A stretch of 36,195 bases of DNA from a virus (taxonomy: Duplodnaviria > Heunggongvirae > Uroviricota > Caudoviricetes): the IMG/VR virus record IMGVR_UViG_3300029686_000222, positions 1 to 36,195 of that record. One strand, given 5' to 3'. The notes under the pieces are model-generated. The model was not told the DNA's origin. It did no database searches and was given only the letters and a program-made list of their open reading frames with translations. Shown piece by piece: positions 21,883 through 34,764 of this stretch. Position numbers and translations under genes: made by a program. The stretch's first letter is position 1. The number at the start of each line of letters is the position of its first letter.

Positions 21883-23670
21883 ATGGCGTACTCTGATGAA
21901 GTGATTGCTGCAGCAAAATCACTCTACCTGAAAAGGCACACCCCAAAAGAAATACAAAAGAAGCTCGGACTGAACAGCCCGCGAATTGTTTATTACTGGG
22001 CGACAAAGTTTGAGTGGTACACGCAGCTCAATACGGAAGGCGTGGAAGATGTTATCGCCCGGCGTCTCGCTGTACTGGCGGAACGTGACCATAAGACCCA
22101 GGAAGAACACGATGAGCTTGATCGCCTGATTGGTCATCACGTCAAACTGATGTCGGTCAGAAACAAGCACACGGAACGAATGGCTGAGATTGCGCGAATG
22201 GGAGTGGACATTCCCCAGCCTGGCTGTTATGGAAAAGAAGAACGCGGAGAAAAAGGTGCAGGCAAGAAAGAGCGTCCCCGCAAAACTAATGACGTTTCCG
22301 GATTGACTGCTGAAAGTTTTGAGCCGTTTACCAAAAAACTGTTCGCTTATCAGTTGCATCTGCGTAAAAACAAATCCCACCGTGTACGCAACCTGCTTAA
22401 ATCCCGTCAGATTGGGGCAACGTATTACTTTGCGTTTGAGGCGTTTGAAGATGCGGTATTAACCGGCGACACACAGATATTTTTATCGGCATCAAAACGT
22501 CAGGCCGAAGTGTTCCGTACTTATATTGTAAAAATTGCACAAACAGAGTTTGGCATTCCCATTAAAGGCAATCCGGTTAAGTTAAGTAATCTGGCTGAAC
22601 TGTATTTTCTGGCGACCAACAGCAACACGGCACAGTCAAACAGCGGCCACCTGTACATTGACGAATACCTGTGGATCCCCGGTTTTCGCCGTCTCAATGA
22701 AGTGGCGTCAGGGATGGCCACCCATAAACACTGGCGCATTACCTATTTCTCCACGCCGTCATCCAAAACACACCAGGGCTACCCGTTCTGGTCTGGCGAT
22801 GAATGGCGCAAAGGCGACCCGAAACGAAAAGGGGTTGAGTTTCCGTCTTTTGATGAACTGCGCGATGGCGGGCGTGAATGCCCGGATGGCCAGTGGCGCT
22901 ATGTGGTGACAATGGAAGATGCTATTGCCGGCGGCTTTAACCTTGCTGACATCAACGAGCTGCGCGAGCGGTACAACGAAACAGCGTTCAATATGCTGTA
23001 TATGTGCGTGTTTGTGGATGACAAAGAGAGCGTCTTTAAATTCGATGACCTCGTGCGCTGTGGCGTTGATGTCAGTACGTGGGAGGATTTTCACCCGGAA
23101 GATGCCATGCCATTTGGAAACCGTGAAGTGTGGGGAGGCTTTGACCCTGCGCGCTCCGGCGATAACGCCACGTTTGTGGTGCTGGCACCGCCGCTGGTTG
23201 CGGCAGAACGATTCCGCGTGCTGGAAAAACACCACTGGCGCAGCATGTCATTTCAGTTTATGGCAGAGCGTATCCGCAGCATTAAGGCGCGCTATAACAT
23301 GACGTTTATCGGCATTGATGTTACCGGGCTTGGCTATGGTGTCTTTGAGCTGGTTCAGGGATTTGCCCGCCGTGAAACAGTGGCCATTCATTACAGCGTT
23401 GAATCCAAAAACCGCCTGGTGATGAAGATGCTGGATCTGATTTACGCCAACCGTATTGAGTGGGATGAGGAAGCCACAGATATTCCGGCATCGTTCCTGG
23501 CCATTCGTCAGGAGTCCACCAACAGTGGTAATAAAGTCACCTTCACCGCCGAACGTAGCGAAGAAACCGGGCACGCTGACATCTTCTTTGCCATAGCTCA
23601 TGCCGCAAGTAATGAACCCCTGAACTATAGGCACAAGCGCAAATCAACATGGATCCTGCCAGATGAGTAA
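21883..23670 (+). CDS. P: Terminase large (ATPase) subunit, P2 gpP-like, 595 aa
   Basis: Length, ATPase-like region and synteny with Q; family-level similarity to P2 P. Confidence 0.9.
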   Translation: MAYSDEVIAAAKSLYLKRHTPKEIQKKLGLNSPRIVYYWATKFEWYTQLNTEGVEDVIARRLAVLAERDHKTQEEHDELDRLIGHHVKLMSVRNKHTERMAEIARMGVDIPQPGCYGKEERGEKGAGKKERPRKTNDVSGLTAESFEPFTKKLFAYQLHLRKNKSHRVRNLLKSRQIGATYYFAFEAFEDAVLTGDTQIFLSASKRQAEVFRTYIVKIAQTEFGIPIKGNPVKLSNLAELYFLATNSNTAQSNSGHLYIDEYLWIPGFRRLNEVASGMATHKHWRITYFSTPSSKTHQGYPFWSGDEWRKGDPKRKGVEFPSFDELRDGGRECPDGQWRYVVTMEDAIAGGFNLADINELRERYNETAFNMLYMCVFVDDKESVFKFDDLVRCGVDVSTWEDFHPEDAMPFGNREVWGGFDPARSGDNATFVVLAPPLVAAERFRVLEKHHWRSMSFQFMAERIRSIKARYNMTFIGIDVTGLGYGVFELVQGFARRETVAIHYSVESKNRLVMKMLDLIYANRIEWDEEATDIPASFLAIRQESTNSGNKVTFTAERSEETGHADIFFAIAHAASNEPLNYRHKRKSTWILPDE

Positions 23671-24697
23671 AAAGAAGAAATATTCTGTGACACACGATGC
23701 CGGAGCAAAAAAAACGGCCGGCAAAATGACGTTTATTGAATTTGGTGACCCCGAACCGGTTGCTGCATGGGGCTGTTATTACGGCTCGCTGTGGGATGGT
23801 TATAACGGCTGGTACACGCCGCCCATTGAGCGCATGGATCTCGCCATGTTGTCCAATATCGCGCCGTATCACGGCGCAGTATTGCGTGCCCGCGTGAATA
23901 TGATTATGCAGGGTTTTCGGGGCGGTGGGGGTATGACACACGCCGCCATGGCGGCAGCAGTGACCAATCTGCTGATATTCGGGGATATGGGGCTGCTTAA
24001 AATACGTAACGGCTTCGGTCGGGTGGTGCGTCTGCATACGTTGCCTTCTCTGTATCTGCGGCGTAACAACGAGGGAGGCACGGTGATTGTGCAGGCGGCA
24101 CTGGAAGATCTCGTGTATCCGCCAGGCGAAGTGGTGTTCGTGGCAATTTATGACCCGCAACAGCAGGTTTACGGTGTCCCGGATTATATCCACGGGATGG
24201 AATCCGCCATGCTGAATGTGGATGCCACCCGCTTTCGTCGCAAGTATTACAAGAACGGCGCACATCTCGGTTATATCCTGTATTCCACTGACCCGGATAT
24301 GACTCCCGAGCTCGAGGCGGAATTCCGTAAAAAGATAGAGGGGTCAAAAGGGGCGGGCAATTTTAAATCCATGTTCATCAATATACCGGGCGGAGACAAA
24401 GAAGGCGTTAAGGTGATCCCTATCGGGGATTCAGGTACAAAAGATGAGTTCCTGAATATAAAAACCATCAGTGCCCAGGATCAGCTCGTGGCACACCGTT
24501 TTCCACCCGGACTTGCCGGCATCATTCCCGCAAATACGGCCGGGCTTGGTGACCCACTGAAATCCCGCGAGGCATATTACAGGGATGAGGTTATCCCGAT
24601 GCGCCGCCTGATTATGGAGGGGATCAACAGCGACCCGGATATCAGACGACTGGGGGAGGTAAAATTTATTCTTGATTTTGATGAACCCATGGAGTGA
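23663..24697 (+). CDS. Q: Portal protein, P2 gpQ-like, 344 aa
   Basis: Overlaps the P stop by 8 nt; P2 Q-family resemblance and synteny. Confidence 0.9.
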   Translation: MSKKKKYSVTHDAGAKKTAGKMTFIEFGDPEPVAAWGCYYGSLWDGYNGWYTPPIERMDLAMLSNIAPYHGAVLRARVNMIMQGFRGGGGMTHAAMAAAVTNLLIFGDMGLLKIRNGFGRVVRLHTLPSLYLRRNNEGGTVIVQAALEDLVYPPGEVVFVAIYDPQQQVYGVPDYIHGMESAMLNVDATRFRRKYYKNGAHLGYILYSTDPDMTPELEAEFRKKIEGSKGAGNFKSMFINIPGGDKEGVKVIPIGDSGTKDEFLNIKTISAQDQLVAHRFPPGLAGIIPANTAGLGDPLKSREAYYRDEVIPMRRLIMEGINSDPDIRRLGEVKFILDFDEPME

Positions 24698-24762
24698 TGT
24701 GCGGTATGGGGAAAGAGCGGGTAAAATCGGCGGCAGTAAAACGCTGTTCCGGGAGGTGGAAA

Positions 24763-25020
24763 ATGCGCAGACAGAAAGCGCGATGTCATTGCTGCGGTGC
24801 ACATGCAGTGATTGAGAAAACAGCCTGGAAAACCGATCAGTTTGCTGATGTGTATTACCGTTGCACCCGTCTCGAGTGCGGACATACCTGGGTGATGAAT
24901 CTGACCTACTCGCACACACTGGTGCCCAGCGGGCTGGATAACGGCGTGTTAAAGCTGTTGATTGAACGGATGCGCCCGGAAGAAAAACAAATGGCGCTGG
25001 AGTTGTTGCAGGCGGGTTAG
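24763..25020 (+). CDS. Ogr/Delta-family zinc-finger late-gene activator-like protein (85 aa)
   Basis: Start at the ATG with GGGAGGTGG RBS. Cys pattern C-x2-C ... C-x4-C with HA-x-H spacing (ARCHCCGAHAV...YYRCTRLECGHTW) parallels P2 Ogr (CPLCQHAAHA...YHQCQNVNC). Confidence 0.6.
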   Translation: MRRQKARCHCCGAHAVIEKTAWKTDQFADVYYRCTRLECGHTWVMNLTYSHTLVPSGLDNGVLKLLIERMRPEEKQMALELLQAG

Positions 25021-25260
25021 TGGGTTTTTTGGGAGAAGATTGTGCCAACCTCTCAGCTGGCGTGGTTGGAGTCCCAGTCTGACGACGAAGTGACCAACTA
25101 GGCGGTATCAGCTTTTTTGGGAGCCGCCTCTGAATCCCCAAAATCTTAAATACAGTCTGCGAGCGAAAAATAACGTTTGATGCACTTAAATTCAACGATA
25201 AACGTATTTGCGATGTGGGTTCACCCTGGCTACGGCGACTGACGCGCTTCGCTTGTCCAA

Positions 25261-25308
25261 CCCGGAACGGGCGCACAAAGAATTTGCGCACCCGTTCCGG
25301 GTTTTCTT
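25261..25308 (+). terminator. Large inverted repeat with T-run downstream of the P-Q-ogr-like operon
   Basis: CCCGGAACGG ... CCGTTCCGGG 10-bp perfect stem around a 21-nt loop, followed by TTTTCTT; lies in the presumed cos region. Confidence 0.4.
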
Positions 25309-25359
25309 ATTCAACGGCAGACAACTGATAATCTGCGTCTTCCTGTGGGCTGGGCAGCT

Positions 25360-25566
25360 CTAAATACGCTTCACAATACCCACAAGATTACTAGGGGACA
25401 GTTCTGCTGTGCGTTTAATATCGTCCACTATGTACGATGCATGTTCACGGTTAATCGCATAGATATAAAATGAGTACTTCCGTTCATCTGCCATAAAGTC
25501 GACAGAAAATAATTTCCATGTACGCCCCTCGACTTCAACCTGTAACGGCATATTTATTCCGCTCAC
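25360..25566 (-). CDS. Hypothetical small protein (68 aa) in the tin/old-equivalent hotspot
   Basis: GTG start with AAGGAG RBS 8 nt upstream; no recognised motif. Confidence 0.5.
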   Translation of the reverse strand: MSGINMPLQVEVEGRTWKLFSVDFMADERKYSFYIYAINREHASYIVDDIKRTAELSPSNLVGIVKRI

Positions 25567-25592
25567 GCATAGTCTCCTTTTGAAAATTCTAA

Positions 25593-25970
25593 TTAAATAT
25601 TTTCGTTACGAAGCATGGCTGCGCGGCAGGCGTTCCAGCCTGTAGCGTATGCAGCCGCTTTGCTGCTGCCTTCAACTGGCGCATCCTGCCAATACATTTC
25701 ATCCGGCACTACCGGTGCTGGCAGCTCGCGATACAGCGGGATTACACGACGCGAGTCTGCGTATTTATCTGGCGGACACTGAAATATCTCACCAAAACCA
25801 TACTCCCTGACATCTTGCAGTTCCTCGTCATCAGTCCATGCCACCGGTTCTGCTTCCAGCGAGGCTAACGCTATTTCATAAGCCCGGCGCTCAATATTGT
25901 CTCGCACGTCCAGGCTGCCTATGCGCTCTTTGATTTCTTTAATCAGTTCTTTGTCGGTGAAAGTTGTCAT
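25593..25970 (-). CDS. Hypothetical acidic protein (125 aa) in the tin/old-equivalent hotspot
   Basis: ATG with RBS; C-terminal AYATGWNACRAAML block seems familiar from phage accessory proteins, but no family could be assigned from memory. Confidence 0.55.
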   Translation of the reverse strand: MTTFTDKELIKEIKERIGSLDVRDNIERRAYEIALASLEAEPVAWTDDEELQDVREYGFGEIFQCPPDKYADSRRVIPLYRELPAPVVPDEMYWQDAPVEGSSKAAAYATGWNACRAAMLRNENI

Positions 25971-26064
25971 GTGTTAGTCCTTATTCTGCTGTGCTTTCAA
26001 CTGATGAGGGGAACAAAATCGTTTCAGTGCGTTGGCATCAGGGCGGATGCGCCCTGATGTTGTG

Positions 26065-26376
26065 TTATTCGGGAAATAACGCCCGGATATTCCCGGCCAT
26101 CTGGCTGGTTATCTGTGTGGTTGGCGTTGGAGGTGTCGCAGGGCGTTCTGCTCTGGTTTGTGTCACTGATAACGCTTCATCATCAGCCCATGCAGCCAGT
26201 CGGTAAGCCTCTGCCGGATTCATTTTCAGAAGTGCCAGCCCGGCCAGAAAAGCCACGCGTTGGCCGCTTTTGCGGGCTTCTGGTGTAAGGCTGTCCAGCC
26301 AGGCGCATGCTTCGCCTTCGTTCTTGACGGCGGCGGGCTTCAGATAGAAACTTATCCGTCTGGTTGGTGTCGTCAT
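26065..26376 (-). CDS. parR: ParR-like plasmid partition adaptor (DNA-binding), ~103 aa
   Basis: RRISFYLKPAAVKNEGEACAWLDSLTPEARKSGQRVAFLAGLALL aligns with plasmid R1 ParR (RRTIAFKLNPDVNQTDKIVCDTLDSIPQGERSRLNRAALTAGLAL); AAGGAG RBS; 4 bp after the parM stop. Confidence 0.8.
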   Translation of the reverse strand: MTTPTRRISFYLKPAAVKNEGEACAWLDSLTPEARKSGQRVAFLAGLALLKMNPAEAYRLAAWADDEALSVTQTRAERPATPPTPTTQITSQMAGNIRALFPE

Positions 26377-26380
26377 TGGT

Positions 26381-27340
26381 TTACTCCTTGTCCATTGCGT
26401 ACAGCCCATTAACCAGAGCAAACTGTGGCACCCTGTCCGCGATGAAAGTCGCATTAACTCCGCAGGCTTCGCGGATAGCGGGTGCCACAATCTCCGCCCC
26501 GCCACCGACAACCATCACCCGCCCGTAACCCGAAAAACCCGCCAGCGCGCGGATCACGCGTTGTTTCAGTGTTTCTTCCTTTTCACGAATAACCGCCATC
26601 AGGCCGGCGTAATGCGCGTCATTGTGGATGTGCTGGCGCAGCCAGGCTTCATCGTGGCGATGTTCGATAATGGTATTGGCGATATGGTGACTGGTACGCA
26701 TACCGTTGGTGGCCATCACTGACAGTACGGCATCGGCTATCAGGGAAACGCCTACGTGTGGATCGCAAAATACCTGGCTGATACCTGCCAGTTGTCCCTG
26801 AACCTTTGCCACATCCAGCGTGGTTCCGCCCAAATCCACAATCAGCAGGGATTCAAACGGACTCATGTCAGCCAGTGCCTTAAAGCCAGCCGGAATGGAT
26901 TCAGGCATAACCCGCACGTTACGGATAGTGAATGCCTCACCGTTCTGGTACTCCACCGGGCGCATGACGTTCGCTTTTTTGCGGTTGATGTTGGCCATGT
27001 CCGGCTGTGCGTTTGTGTCGAAATACTCGCTCAGTGGCAGGGTGACAACCACATCCACCTCCTGTGGCGTGATGCCTGATTTGACCAGCGCATGATGAAT
27101 GGCAATGACATTCACATCGCTGTACTGGTATTGCGTGTCGGTCGTCTGGACAAAGCGATCGCTGACCGGATCAAAACCATAGCGCACGCCATCAAGCATG
27201 TAGTTCGCGGGCTGCGTGCCACCGAACGGCGCAGACCATTCCGACTTGAAGCTGTTCGGGCTGATGGCGTTGCGGCGTTCGCCGTTCTCAGTCCATGCCA
27301 GCTTGATGTTGGTGGAGCCGTCGTCGATACAAATTTTCAT
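26381..27340 (-). CDS. parM: ParM/StbA-like actin-type partition ATPase, 319 aa
   Basis: N-terminal phosphate-1 motif MKICIDDGSTNIKLAW (R1 ParM: FIDDGSTNIKLQW); later LIVDLGGTTLDV and VVGGGA motifs typical of the actin/ParM fold. Confidence 0.85.
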   Translation of the reverse strand: MKICIDDGSTNIKLAWTENGERRNAISPNSFKSEWSAPFGGTQPANYMLDGVRYGFDPVSDRFVQTTDTQYQYSDVNVIAIHHALVKSGITPQEVDVVVTLPLSEYFDTNAQPDMANINRKKANVMRPVEYQNGEAFTIRNVRVMPESIPAGFKALADMSPFESLLIVDLGGTTLDVAKVQGQLAGISQVFCDPHVGVSLIADAVLSVMATNGMRTSHHIANTIIEHRHDEAWLRQHIHNDAHYAGLMAVIREKEETLKQRVIRALAGFSGYGRVMVVGGGAEIVAPAIREACGVNATFIADRVPQFALVNGLYAMDKE

Positions 27341-27371: not shown

Positions 27372-27470
27372 TTTACGGGATTCTGAAATCCCGTTTTCGC
27401 CTGTTTTGTGCGCGCTTCATATATCGCGGCGCGTTTTTTGCTCATTTACGGGATTTGTGAATCCCGTTTC
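27372..27470. repeat. Two near-identical imperfect palindromes (~26 bp) flanking the parM upstream region; candidate parC-like centromere or operator
   Basis: TTTACGGGATTCTGAAATCCCGTTTT (27372-27397) and TTTACGGGATTTGTGAATCCCGTTTC (27445-27470); the second lies inside the last codons of gene A. Confidence 0.4.
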
Positions 27471-30239
27471 TGTCTGCTTTTTGTTTCCACTGGTCAGGCC
27501 ACCCCGCAGCAGGTCTGCTTTGCGGCGGGCGCGTTCAGTGGTTTCACTGATTCTCTGTGCGTGCTCTGCGTCACGGATGGCGCGCAGCATGTCAGAAAGC
27601 ACGGTAACGGGGGTTTTCATGGTGTTCTGGTCCTGCTGAAGTGTGGATGCCAGGCGTGCGGCGGCTTCGGGGTCTGATGCCCCCAGCTGTTCCAGATAGC
27701 TGGCAACCGGGTTATGGCGGATCTCCGTGCTGCTTACGCCGTGATTACGGCTCAGGCGCTGCCAGAGCTGCGTGATTCGGCTGTCCGGGCGGGTATCCGG
27801 TTTGCGTACAATTTCAAATCCCTGCGGTGCAATGATGCTGCCGTCAACGTACAGGCTGCCGCCCCGTAACAGGTGCTGCATCTGATGTTCACCGATATGC
27901 AGGCCGAGAGATTCAGCAGACTCCCGCCATTCTTTAGCGAGTAATTCGTGGTTATCAGGCAAAGGCCGCTGCTGTTTGCGGCTCTGTGTCCAGCTCTGCA
28001 TTTCATCACTGCTGTTTTTTGCCTGTTTGTCACGCAGCGAACGCATCAGCGCCCGGCGTTCGTGCCGTTTCAGTGAGCGCATCCATTCGTTCACTTCAAT
28101 GCCGTCAGGGAACTGCGGCCACGGTGTTGGCCGTTCTTCCGGCTGTTCTGTCCCGCTGTTGTCCGTTTCCTGTACACGGGGACAGTTATTGCCACGAGTC
28201 CAAGGGGCGGCAGGGCCGCCCTGAAGGTCAAAACCATTTTCGCGGGTGCTGTCTTCCGCTTCCGGTTTGCGTCTTACCAGCTTCCAGTTATCCGGATGCG
28301 TGCACACACGGGAGGATTCCCCGATGAGTGGTGACCAGATCCCGTAAATCTGTACGCTCTGTTCGCCGTAATCGTTCAGCTCATCTGCGAGGTCGTAGGC
28401 GGTGCGAATCAGGTAGTCTTTGCGTGGAACAAGTACGCCGCCCTGTTTCTCTATGTAGGTGGCAAAACATCCGGCATCAGCGGCAGCAAGAACCGCGTCC
28501 ATTGCGTCATCCTTCAGCCGTTGCGGTCCTTCCGGGTTGCGAGCCATCTGGCTGGCAAGGCGACGCAGTTCACGCCACACCTGACGGGAGGGGATACCAA
28601 AGAACTGGAACTGGCGGACCCGGTGAAGGCGCGCCCAGCCGATGGCACGCTCCACGCTCTCGGCCATTGATTTTCCGGTTTCGTGGTCAACGCGTGGCTT
28701 GCCCGTTTTCGGGTCGATGCCATCCACGGCGCGGTTGTCCAGGTTCTTTCCGATGTAGGTGGCGATGTAGCTGGTTGGTGTGCCTTTTGAGCCGTCGACA
28801 TACTCCACCTTAAAGCGCGGAGTAATATCATTGCCCAGCTCGTGGCGGTCTTCCTGAATGGCAATATCGCGGGTGTGGGACACAATGGTGTCGATTTCTT
28901 CCGGATGAGCAAAGACCATCATATGCCAGTGCACGGTGCCGTCATGGTGAGGCTCCACCGTGCGGATGCCATACCAGCGCAGGCCGTCGCGGTTCAGTTT
29001 CTTGCGGACCGCCGCAAAAAACGTGTTAACCAGGTAATCGCTGGAGTCGCGCATGGTGGCCCCGTTCCATTTGGGATTCGGATGACCGTTCTCTGTTGTG
29101 GCGTGGTATTTTGACGGGCAGGTGACAGTCAGAAACACCGCTTTGTCGCCACGGGCTTCGGCCAGAAGTTCCAGTCCCTTCATGGTGGCCATCATTTCTG
29201 CCTTACGGTGAACCGGGTTACTTACTCCCGCGTAATACACTGTCTCGAGATCAATCGTGAACCCGTCTTCGTTTTCCAGCATGAAACTTTTCAGGAAATC
29301 GCGTGTTTTCTCGCGCTGTGCGCGAAACTCGCTTAACGCGTCCTGGCTCAGATAGGGCGATGTTTTTCTGGAAACCAGACAGGCGGCGCGGAGTTGTTCT
29401 TCCCGCCACTCGCAACGTAACAGCCACAGTTTGCGTTTCCACCATTCCGCACAGGTCAGGCGAAGGATTGCGCCCGGCAGCAGCTCCGTGTCCGGTTCGT
29501 TCCTCCGGTCTTTATCTGTTGTCAGTGCGTCATAATGTGGAGGCATGGCGTGCAGGTGTAACGCCATGCGGGCCAGCATCTGATACGCCTTCAGCGTTAC
29601 GTCCATGGTCAGCTCGCCATCGGTCGCGCCAAAGCCATCACAGAGTTTTTCGAAGGTGCTGCTGAACATCGCCGCCGTCATGGTAGCCAGCGTCTGTATC
29701 TGGTGCTTGTTGAGCTGCGGCAGGTAAAGCAAATCGTCCAGGCGTTCGCGTCCGGCAAGAGAGCGATAACCCGGTGTCAGCCAGCGGTGGTCGGTGCGGT
29801 CCAGACGTTCGAATATTTTGCGCAGGGTTCCGCGCGCGTAGCGTTCAGCCTGCCAGCTCTTTTTGCCTTTCCGGCGATCGGCTTCCTGTTTTTTGCGCAG
29901 GAAGGAGAGGTGGCGAATAAGCGTATCGCGCAGATAGGACGGCAGCAGGCGCAGCGAGGCCATGGCTTCATCCACCGCACCGCGTGCCTGTTTTCTGGCT
30001 TCTCTGGCCAGTGTGATGGTTTTGTCCTGCTTTTCCTGTGCGTCCAGGCTTTTATTAATCAGGTTGCCCAGCGGTGTGGCGGAGAACGCCGCGTCAGCCA
30101 TTTCCTGGCGGCGCTCGTTCTCTGCCCGGTAGGCATCCAGCCAGGAGGAAAGTGCGGATTCAGGTGCGGGGATCCCCGTTCCTTCACGTCCTACTGTGTG
30201 GCGCGGTTGTTGCCAGTCCCTGATGTACTCTGTCGTCAT
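27417..30239 (-). CDS. A: Replication initiation endonuclease, P2 gpA-like (rolling-circle HUH-type), 940 aa
   Basis: HUH-like motif VHWHMMVF and paired catalytic tyrosines in YIATYIGK, as in P2 A / phiX174 A-type initiators. Confidence 0.85.
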   Translation of the reverse strand: MTTEYIRDWQQPRHTVGREGTGIPAPESALSSWLDAYRAENERRQEMADAAFSATPLGNLINKSLDAQEKQDKTITLAREARKQARGAVDEAMASLRLLPSYLRDTLIRHLSFLRKKQEADRRKGKKSWQAERYARGTLRKIFERLDRTDHRWLTPGYRSLAGRERLDDLLYLPQLNKHQIQTLATMTAAMFSSTFEKLCDGFGATDGELTMDVTLKAYQMLARMALHLHAMPPHYDALTTDKDRRNEPDTELLPGAILRLTCAEWWKRKLWLLRCEWREEQLRAACLVSRKTSPYLSQDALSEFRAQREKTRDFLKSFMLENEDGFTIDLETVYYAGVSNPVHRKAEMMATMKGLELLAEARGDKAVFLTVTCPSKYHATTENGHPNPKWNGATMRDSSDYLVNTFFAAVRKKLNRDGLRWYGIRTVEPHHDGTVHWHMMVFAHPEEIDTIVSHTRDIAIQEDRHELGNDITPRFKVEYVDGSKGTPTSYIATYIGKNLDNRAVDGIDPKTGKPRVDHETGKSMAESVERAIGWARLHRVRQFQFFGIPSRQVWRELRRLASQMARNPEGPQRLKDDAMDAVLAAADAGCFATYIEKQGGVLVPRKDYLIRTAYDLADELNDYGEQSVQIYGIWSPLIGESSRVCTHPDNWKLVRRKPEAEDSTRENGFDLQGGPAAPWTRGNNCPRVQETDNSGTEQPEERPTPWPQFPDGIEVNEWMRSLKRHERRALMRSLRDKQAKNSSDEMQSWTQSRKQQRPLPDNHELLAKEWRESAESLGLHIGEHQMQHLLRGGSLYVDGSIIAPQGFEIVRKPDTRPDSRITQLWQRLSRNHGVSSTEIRHNPVASYLEQLGASDPEAAARLASTLQQDQNTMKTPVTVLSDMLRAIRDAEHAQRISETTERARRKADLLRGGLTSGNKKQTETGFTNPVNEQKTRRDI

Positions 30240-30245
30240 ACTGAT

Positions 30246-30611
30246 TTACTTCGTCATACCGTCCAGAGTGTCACGGCAAACGGTAGCCAGCCGCTGAATT
30301 TCCAGCACGGTGTCTTCTGTGTCGGCATAGCGATGTGTGATGCGGATGCTGTCTGCAATCACATCGACGATCGCAGAGGATGGGCACTGGTAAATGCCAA
30401 TAACGGACGGGGTGCCGCCTTCAATGCGGTAAAGCCTGTAATTTCCCTCGTGGCTGTCAATCATGTAGCGGCCATCAATAACAATCTTTCCGTCAGCGAG
30501 CTGCGGTACAGGCAGGGATTTCAGGTACATGTCATAACGGTCACGCACGCGAACGGCAAGATCGCGCTCTGTGTTCATCAGCCAGTCAATAAAGTTTTCT
30601 GCGAGAATCAT
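30246..30611 (-). CDS. Hypothetical early protein (121 aa), translationally coupled to gene A
   Basis: AAGAGG RBS; its stop overlaps the A start. Confidence 0.5.
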   Translation of the reverse strand: MILAENFIDWLMNTERDLAVRVRDRYDMYLKSLPVPQLADGKIVIDGRYMIDSHEGNYRLYRIEGGTPSVIGIYQCPSSAIVDVIADSIRITHRYADTEDTVLEIQRLATVCRDTLDGMTK

Positions 30612-30683
30612 TGCGGCAATCCTCTTGTTACAGATGTGCGAAGGCCTCCCGCCGCAAGGTGCAGGAAAGGCCCGGAACCAGAA

Positions 30684-30914
30684 TTAATGGAGTTTGTTTT
30701 GCTGCTGGATGAGCTGTTGAAGCTCGTACAAATCATCCGCCAGATAGCTAAAAACAGAGGCGGAATAAGTGTTTGATAGCGCATGACTGCGTTCATGCAG
30801 CATATTGATGTGCATGATTTGCGCGACGCGTGATGCGCGGAAAAGTCTGCGGTTGATTTCAGTCTGGATGTGACGACGCTCCGCGATAGCGCGGTGCTGT
30901 TTGCGGTTTGCCAT
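30684..30914 (-). CDS. Hypothetical small basic protein (76 aa)
   Basis: ATG with AGAGAGG RBS; overlapped by a longer low-complexity ORF in another frame that was rejected. Confidence 0.45.
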   Translation of the reverse strand: MANRKQHRAIAERRHIQTEINRRLFRASRVAQIMHINMLHERSHALSNTYSASVFSYLADDLYELQQLIQQQNKLH

Positions 30915-31093
30915 GGTGTGGCCTCTCTGTTAGTCAGTTTTGAAAACTCACCATCCAGAGGTTCCAAGCTCGGGGTGGTGAGACGCACAGGGTTGGAACT
31001 ACCGGCTAACAGAGGACCCGGCCCAGCTGATGCTGGCCCTGTACGCCCCACCATAATTCGTGTGCGAAAAAGACATGGCGATACGGTACGCAC

Positions 31094-31114
31094 AAAAAAA
31101 CCGCTGGCGCGGTT
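31094..31114 (-). terminator. Weak candidate intrinsic terminator within the early-region intergenic gap
   Basis: Minus-strand AACCGC-gcca-GCGGTT followed by TTTTT; 6-bp stem only. Confidence 0.3.
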
Positions 31115-31234
31115 GTGCGCTCTGTTAGTCTGCGGGGTTCCAATCCCGGCACCCGTTTTATGAGATGCAGCGGAAATGTAACCTGACTGATTGCGGCATG
31201 GCAAGCGGTTTTTTTGTGTGTGCATGATGATTAC

Positions 31235-34299: not shown

Positions 34300-34764
34300 T
34301 TATGCTGCTTTACCGTTGATGTTTCTGTTTCGTCTGCCACTTGTTGGCTTAAACAAAAACAGACGGTTTTCCCAGTCGTGCCATTCCTGAGGTGCGTTTT
34401 CGATGAGGCGATCGCATGCTTCATCCCACGCTTTTCTGTTGATGTAGAGTTCAGCGTTTCCGCCTGGCTTGAGAGGGTCCGCCATATACACCGCAGGTAG
34501 CTTTCCTGCTTTTGCCATGCTTACGATGGCATCAACGGTCTTTCCGATATACATCGCAAACCCTTCTTTTGACAGGAGATGCGAGGGATTTTCTGAAAGT
34601 CGAATTTCTTCACGTTCACGTGCTTTGCGTCCTGTTTTTTGATGCTCACCTTCTGGCATTTCTGACAGGTGATCGCATCGTGTTCCGCAAAGTGACTCAG
34701 GCGCGTTTTGAGTGCTTTCTTGCATCTGATATCCTCCGCCATTGGTGCTCTTTCTAATTGGCAC
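34300..34764 (-). CDS. Cox-like excisionase / early-promoter regulator; start uncertain
   Basis: C-terminal ~85 aa (GFAMYIGKTVDAIVSMAKAGKLPAVYMADPL...) parallels P2 Cox (EFAKLIGKSTGAVRRMIDKGKLPVIDMTDP...). Divergent from C. The GTG at 34764 gives 154 aa; internal ATGs at codons 14, 36 and 71 are alternatives. Confidence 0.6.
   Translation of the reverse strand: MPIRKSTNGGGYQMQESTQNAPESLCGTRCDHLSEMPEGEHQKTGRKAREREEIRLSENPSHLLSKEGFAMYIGKTVDAIVSMAKAGKLPAVYMADPLKPGGNAELYINRKAWDEACDRLIENAPQEWHDWENRLFLFKPTSGRRNRNINGKAA

Follow-up and report, generated by a model that had tools for sequence, protein, structure and literature searches.

What do two small genes contribute to a P2-family prophage when they occupy a stretch in which its relatives carry anti-phage systems? 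The question is raised by a virus record of 36,195 nucleotides (nt) (IMG/VR IMGVR_UViG_3300029686_000222; this whole stretch is called the window), which encodes between positions 25360 and 25970 one protein of 125 amino acids (aa) and one of 68 aa. A preliminary description, made from the sequence without database searches, had placed both genes at the equivalent of the P2 tin/old locus and had proposed a minimal defence, anti-defence or toxin-antitoxin pair. Our comparisons point to an acquisition of the two genes as one block from lambdoid phages, and we slightly favour a role as dispensable accessory proteins made early in the phage cycle.

Two small genes with homologues in many phages

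The pair consists of the following genes:

25593-25970, minus strand, gene125: 125-aa acidic mosaic protein; open reading frame (ORF) with ATG start, AAGGA ribosome-binding site (RBS) and PHROG matches
25360-25566, minus strand, gene68: 68-aa beta-beta-beta-alpha mini-protein of PHROG 10509; ORF with GTG start and AAGGAG RBS

Both genes have the same orientation and are separated by 26 nt, and each RBS, read from the sequence, lies 7 nt 5' of its start codon. The product of gene125 has a pI of 4.48, with 25 acidic and 15 basic residues, and that of gene68 a pI of 6.55, the latter gene having a GC content of 41.5%. The preliminary description was therefore correct in reporting two small genes, the larger product acidic, each with its own RBS. 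The GTG start of gene68 is supported by a homologue in the lytic Serratia phage IME250 (L006), where the N-terminus MSGIN is kept with an ATG start. Some gene callers take an internal ATG instead, giving a product of 63 aa, and the RefSeq annotation omits gene68 in at least two related prophages.

Both ORFs are genuine genes, as judged from sequence conservation, and not chance ORFs, because they have many homologues, because the core SFYIYAINREHASY of the 68-aa family is invariant among close homologues, and because dN/dS of gene68 is low (about 0.09-0.18 against diverged lambdoid copies, with few substitutions behind the estimate). Both reading frames are uninterrupted in every copy examined.

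Origin of the block in lambdoid exo-xis regions

The pair, with a short upstream piece, belongs to a segment common to lambdoid phages:

about 25371-26026 (approximate extent), minus strand, block common to lambdoid exo-xis regions and including both genes (blastn against L010-L019)

In the lambdoid loci L010-L019, this block has 85-95% nucleotide identity from 25371 to an end point that varies among the loci from 25631 to 25997, and a separate 71-bp match at 25956-26026 was found in L019. Beyond one end of the block, homology with the P88-type backbone restarts at about 26018-26037, and beyond the other end at 25353. Since the identity with the lambdoid regions is 85-95% while the P88-type backbone resumes on both sides, the pair is a block of about 0.65 kb transplanted by recombination from a lambdoid exo-xis ('ea') region into the gpA-gpQ hotspot.

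The gene contexts agree with this origin. A 71-aa homologue of the 68-aa protein (P0121) is located in the pL-side accessory region of lambdoid prophages in 10 out of 10 contexts, with genes for Rad52/RecT, SSB, Abc2, Ea22-like, DUF4014, HNH and DUF551 proteins as neighbours, and with xis and int downstream wherever the fetched locus reaches that far. In all 10, the preceding gene ends 26 nt before it and encodes a full-length homologue (119-170 aa) of the 125-aa protein, and in 6 of them a DUF551 gene starts 4 nt downstream. This DUF551 gene is missing in the window, and the junction falls within the last codons of gene68, which read KRI here versus SSQDKE in the lambdoid versions. Gene 36 of HK022 encodes a full-length homologue of the 125-aa protein with 54% identity and adjoins the Ea22-like gene 37.

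The closest known genes are those of lambdoid exo-xis regions, such as lambda ea22, ea8.5 and orf60a/61/63, HK022 genes 35-37 and the ea genes of P22. Like the pair studied here, those genes are all small, mosaic, non-essential and situated distally in an early operon. What differs is the setting, since the block here follows gpA-parMR in a genome of the P2 family (P88-like).

The 125-aa protein

The earlier impression that neither gene was recognisable does not hold, since both proteins fall in PHROG families (5117, 660 and 60 for the larger, 10509 for the smaller). The 125-aa protein matches phrog_5117 over residues 1-122 (E 8e-35), and further matches were found with phrog_660 (E 2e-28) and phrog_60 (E 6e-22), these three being families of unknown function. 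It has 2,973 database homologues, some of them carrying PF13935 or PF04448, and its family is present in 294 records, mostly Stx and other lambdoid phages. The exact protein occurs on 18 contigs, with the same arrangement in a P88-like slot in all 10 that were inspected.

The 125-aa protein is a mosaic of shuffled modules, acidic and mainly helical. In the alignment of homologues, residues 1-45 form a helical hairpin closing with 'IALASLEAEPVAW', which is nearly invariant; the middle part (residues ~46-80) varies, and residues ~84-125 end in a nearly invariant GWNACRAAML helix. The tail 'AEPVAW...GWNACRAAML' recurs as the C-terminus of some Ead/Ea22-like proteins and as the N-terminus of many DUF551 proteins, and residues ~39-125 correspond to the C-terminal tail of some PF13935 proteins (P0037 and P0040, for example). 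Many DUF551 (PF04448) proteins have an N-terminal half that resembles the 125-aa protein as a whole. Many members of that group, which includes YfdS of E. coli CPS-53 and the Ea22 variant V2 of Stx phages, begin with 'IALASLEAEPVAW' ... 'GWNACRAAML' and have 55-70% identity over the whole 125 aa. Unlike them, the 125-aa protein does not extend into the DUF551 domain and represents the N-terminal adaptor part only: it has no Pfam match to DUF551 and, in the alignment, ends where this domain starts in P0034 and P0096.

In contrast to the lambdoid Ea22 proteins, the 125-aa protein gave no match to the Ead_Ea22 profile (PF13935), which describes an N-terminal segment and a coiled coil, in a Pfam search at E <= 0.1. 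A phmmer search against all PDB chains gave no match at E <= 10, the C-terminal domain of lambda Ea22 solved by nuclear magnetic resonance (NMR; PMC10834534) being among the chains compared. The protein illustrates a module shuffling of the Ea22/DUF551 type and is nothing new in kind.

The 68-aa protein

The smaller protein matches phrog_10509, a family of unknown function, over residues 4-62 (E 1e-25). It has 11 close homologues, and 127 clusters at 50% identity were retrieved when 1.8 billion representative proteins were searched with a profile; the distant relatives that were tested (77 of 77) fall into PHROG 10509. In this wider family, G14, W17, A37, H42 and A43 are invariant or nearly so. 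By tblastn, the family is present in 147 phage records, mostly of strictly lytic phages such as Kagunavirus (K1G) and myoviruses of about 150 kb (Serratia phage IME250).

Further copies were observed in the same slot of two P88-like RefSeq prophages of E. coli, left unannotated by PGAP, with 97% protein identity: L003 6001-6240 (STEC2018-607) and L004 6001-6290 (VCSW5). Their upstream partners are different: in L003 the neighbour encodes a protein of 148 aa that is homologous to the 125-aa protein, and in L004 it is a truncated Ea22-like pseudogene. In IME250, a lytic phage of 155 kb, a gene for a 69-aa cysteine-rich protein (LYCDC...APGH) lies directly upstream of the 68-aa homologue (L006 5795-6004), and a homologue of this cysteine-rich protein is cargo in another P88-like slot (L052). 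This hints that several small genes move between lytic phages and the P88-like hotspot.

Structure prediction, proposed in the preliminary description as a check, gave AlphaFold2 (AF2) models with a pLDDT of 72.6 for each protein, and fold searches were uninformative. The 68-aa protein and its 77-member profile gave only chance-level matches in the PDB. As a candidate we considered T7 Gp2, a small early protein of a lytic phage that binds a host target. The structural score was not significant, PurS and ribosomal eL20 scored equally or better and there is no sequence similarity, so T7 Gp2 is a lead only, with no claim of membership.

Neither protein had a match in Pfam, NCBIfam or PADLOC, the sole signal being an insignificant one to tRNA_int_endo (E 0.078). 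In PADLOC-DB v2, no family was matched by either at E <= 0.1, and Pfam revealed no enzymatic or sensor domain in them. In the literature on Ea22-like proteins, DUF551 and Xuanwuvirus, we found no functional or experimental study of either family.

The two families are separable. The loci examined in K1G and IME250 have a member of the 68-aa family but no homologue of the 125-aa protein, and HK022 has a member of the 125-aa family with no 68-aa homologue beside it. As they occur apart, they do not seem to form a toxin-antitoxin or any other obligate two-component system.

Position in the early operon

By sequence identity, the phage is a P88-like prophage of E. coli (Xuanwuvirus, Peduoviridae) of the P2 family, its parM-parR stretch being 96-97% identical to phage P88 and relatives (megablast). 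The features around the pair are:

34300-34764, minus strand, cox, start of an uninterrupted minus-strand gene run that ends at gene68
27417-30239, minus strand, gpA-type replication endonuclease of 940 aa (PF05840, E 6e-131)
26381-27340, minus strand, parM, actin-like segregation ATPase (PF06406, PF21523)
26065-26376, minus strand, parR-like partition adaptor of 103 aa (Plasmid_stab_B; PF10784, E 6e-24), conserved left anchor of the slot
26036-26059, minus strand, 10-bp GC-rich stem-loop directly after parR (inverted repeat I8; RNA fold of the intergenic stretch, z -2.6)
25259-25303, no strand assigned, 45-bp near-perfect palindrome after gene68, situated where the early operon and the portal-ogr unit converge (inverted repeat I1)
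24763-25020, plus strand, Ogr/Delta zinc-finger late activator of 85 aa (PF04606, E 1e-12; annotated as such in relatives)
23663-24697, plus strand, portal, gpQ homologue (PF04860; annotated as portal in relatives)

On the minus strand, the order is cox, genes of the DUF4754, helix-turn-helix (HTH) and Ash families, gpA, parM, parR, the stem-loop, gene125 and gene68, and then the palindrome. A CI-type HTH repressor and an integrase are found at the right end of the prophage, and from the left the large terminase, portal and ogr on the plus strand converge on the minus-strand run. For the parR-like gene, phrog_2515 matches residues 46-148 of a longer ORF, and 191 relatives are present in IMG/VR.

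The stem-loop between parR and the pair is kept with its parR flank in P88 and in L004. The coding strand has no U-tract adjacent to it, so read-through into the pair is likely. The palindrome beyond gene68 has arms of 21 nt and a spacer of 3 nt, is 90% complementary and is terminator-like on the plus strand; it is conserved in L007, L008 and L009, relatives of both slot types. It is probably a terminator, and it could be a bidirectional one or part of the cos or packaging site.

The preliminary description had located the pair between gene A and cos as in P2. The slot from gpA to the portal is indeed the same, but the phage is P88-like, parM and parR separate the two genes from gene A, and the position of cos could not be fixed, the P2 cos 19-mer being absent from the window in a search with up to 3 mismatches.

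Near parM, the palindrome ACGGGATT-N4-AATCCCGT occurs twice (27373-27396 and 27445-27468), flanking the end of gene A and the start of parM. Both copies are candidates for a ParR-binding centromere or operator (parC), and transcription of parM, parR and the two genes in lysogens could possibly start from a promoter there.

A hypervariable slot with mostly Ea-type cargo

The slot extends from the gpA homologue (PF05840) to the gpQ-type portal (PF04860), with parMR and ogr inside the interval. Ogr/Delta and the portal form its right anchor in this sub-lineage. This stretch is a published defence hotspot of P2-like phages (PMC9122126, PMC13586616). We surveyed 81 related loci, anchored by parR on one side and by the portal or ogr on the other, and found 34 architectures with about 60 ORF clusters and lengths from 991 to 4168 bp, which bears out the claim that the locus is a hotspot for diverse anti-phage systems. 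The following cargo was recognised by PADLOC:

IetA/IetS, 2 loci
AbiLi/AbiLii-like, 1 locus
RmrA-like with a partner, 4 loci
PDC-M04A (DUF3800), 3 loci
Phd/Doc pair, 4 loci

This survey of slot occupants, suggested in the preliminary description, showed that the commonest cargo consists of small co-oriented Ea-type genes. Among them are a 205-aa Ea22-like protein in 27 loci and a 123-aa ClpX-zinc-finger-like protein in 31, and further cargo of this type has modules in common with the 125-aa protein. Rfam found no family within the slot. In loci L030-L109, several cargos recognised by PADLOC (Phd/Doc, DUF3800 and AbiL-like genes, and also two genes for membrane or DUF4760-like proteins) run against the early operon. 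Ea-type cargo is without exception co-oriented with this operon, as is the studied pair, and among the PADLOC-recognised cargo IetAS and the RmrA-like genes are exceptions in having that orientation too.

The two-gene cargo is rare, being found in 1 of 80 P88-like loci of IMG/VR. The pair is present in draft and metagenome contigs; no complete E. coli genome in RefSeq covers at least 80% of the slot, in a search whose query held a 218-bp indel that lowers the coverage. The hotspot, its variability and its Ea22-type cargo were already described, having been catalogued across thousands of P2-like prophages. What is new here is one more cargo variant in a catalogued hotspot, with both proteins from existing, uncharacterised phage families.

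The slot resembles the P2 tin/old locus in its anchors (the gpA homologue and the portal), in its hypervariability and in the known defence systems of relatives. The cargo, by contrast, is unlike known defence proteins, is co-oriented with the early operon and comes from the early lytic region of other phages. P2 Old combines AAA and TOPRIM domains, and by Pfam neither protein has an ATPase or TOPRIM domain; the Tin sequence was not compared directly.

Possible function of the pair

The reading to which we give a probability of roughly 55% is that the pair encodes dispensable early accessory proteins acting by protein binding on host or phage processes. The arguments for it are the relatives in early lambdoid operons and in lytic phages, the small size of both proteins and their lack of catalytic motifs, and the precedent of the exo-xis genes. 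These, ea22 included, are early and non-essential modulators of the lysis-lysogeny decision and of host physiology (PMC7093339, PMC10834534, PMC10695390). The presence of the 68-aa family in lytic phages also argues for a function that serves the phage in lytic growth. According to this model, the pair would be transcribed at the promoter-distal end of the Cox-side early operon by read-through from the early promoter, or possibly from a parM promoter. Both proteins would be made early, together with the replication genes, upon induction or infection, and would bind host or phage proteins rather than catalyse a reaction. In this way they may, to the benefit of the phage, modulate the physiology or immunity of the host or shift the timing of development. 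The pair would be dispensable cargo and not an exclusion system expressed in the lysogen. Conserved core genes of replication or packaging, the preliminary description's other way of explaining the pair, were not what we found either, since both are accessory genes.

Some points weigh against an early accessory role. The absence of a sigma-70-like site on the minus strand in 24600-26600, which speaks for this role, comes from a scan for the consensus only and is weak evidence. The slot is an established defence hotspot. A 2026 study of the analogous P4 hotspot found 6 of 8 loci of unknown function to be defensive, and machine-learning defence signals were reported in about 30% of unknown hotspot proteins (PMC13586616). 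In addition, candidate parC palindromes were seen, and a promoter under ParR control, located upstream of parM, could have both genes expressed in lysogens.

Anti-defence, one option of the preliminary description, is a possible function. A more specific proposal, which we regard as tentative and rather unlikely, is that the 68-aa PHROG-10509 protein, alone or aided by the 125-aa adaptor, is a counter-defence or host-takeover factor common to Kagunavirus, the ~150-kb myoviruses, lambdoid exo-xis regions and P88-like hotspots.

It is equally doubtful that the block is a neutral passenger, that is, a remnant of recombination with a lambdoid ea region, without the downstream DUF551 gene, carried in one recent prophage lineage with no role in fitness. 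Its borders would fit such a remnant, as the block ends exactly at the gene68 stop, where the last residues differ, and the DUF551 gene of the lambdoid contexts is missing. The rarity of the cargo, both in the IMG/VR loci and in complete RefSeq genomes, points the same way, as do the near identity of the carriers, which makes them too young for selection to show, and the neighbouring Ea22-like gene that is a pseudogene in L004. However, both frames are intact in all copies examined and strong RBSs are kept, dN/dS is low in comparison with the lambdoid copies, and the same gene68 was retained with different partners in two other P88-like slots (L003 and L004).

We consider it improbable that the pair, or one of its genes, is a small anti-phage (exclusion) system expressed in lysogens from a hotspot equivalent to tin/old. 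The location in the gpA-gpQ hotspot (PMC9122126) is what suggests it, with IetAS, AbiL-like, RmrA-like, DUF3800 and Phd/Doc genes in the same slot of relatives, and the genes without assigned function in such hotspots are often defensive (PMC13586616). The low GC content of gene68 and the ParR-regulated promoter that could serve in lysogens are also compatible with it. On the other hand, several findings speak against the minimal defence system proposed at the outset: neither protein has a PADLOC match or an enzymatic or sensor domain, and homologues are found both in lambdoid phages, within early lytic operons, and in phages that are strictly lytic. The two genes share the orientation of a repressible early operon and have no promoter-like site of their own; several recognised defence cargos run the other way, while every Ea-like cargo has the operon's orientation.

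It is very improbable that the two genes form, next to parMR, a type II toxin-antitoxin system that stabilises the prophage or its plasmid form, the 125-aa protein being the antitoxin and the 68-aa protein the toxin: two small genes 26 nt apart, the upstream one acidic, adjoin a partition module, and relatives have a genuine Phd/Doc pair in the slot, but the families are separable, their sizes are far apart (2,973 matches versus 127 clusters), neither protein has a toxin or antitoxin match in Pfam, the upstream one has no DNA-binding domain, and a toxin carried alone by lytic phages is unlikely.

Other features of the window

Directly after the ogr stop, we observed a 218-bp segment (25021-25238) with two copies of the direct repeat TTTTTTGGGAG and no Rfam match. 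The window, L008, L020-L023 and L025 have this segment, and it is cleanly absent from the otherwise near-identical L007/L030, L009, L024 and L027. A small mobile element, a variant of the packaging site or a deletion are candidate explanations. The ogr gene itself, directly 3' of the portal, is not in its P2 position, and phage P88 has no ogr at that place. The terminase-portal-ogr module belongs to another sub-lineage (81 E. coli genomes, 93-96% identity) than the P88-type portal, and for this reason the prophage is a mosaic of two Xuanwuvirus-like backbones.

Within or beside the Ash-family ORF (30608-31225), Rfam gave two matches at gathering score on the minus strand, a C4 antisense RNA at 30971-31058 (76 bits) and an isrK Hfq-binding RNA at 31094-31168 (70 bits). 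They suggest an antisense immunity element of the P1/P7 type in the early operon of a P2-family phage. At the far end of the prophage, a 401-aa ORF on the plus strand (1-1206), in a region of low GC content (39%), has weak matches to BRCT (E 3e-4) and to PADLOC PDC-S48 (E 2e-5), and may be a second accessory or defence locus.

Meaning for the phage families involved

If the 68-aa protein did act in counter-defence or host takeover, the gpA-gpQ 'defence' hotspot would also trade offensive early genes with unrelated phage families. The 68-aa family is well conserved across lytic and temperate phages of several families, has neither a Pfam model nor a solved structure, and is often left unannotated in RefSeq genomes. 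A phenotype for it would inform many phages.
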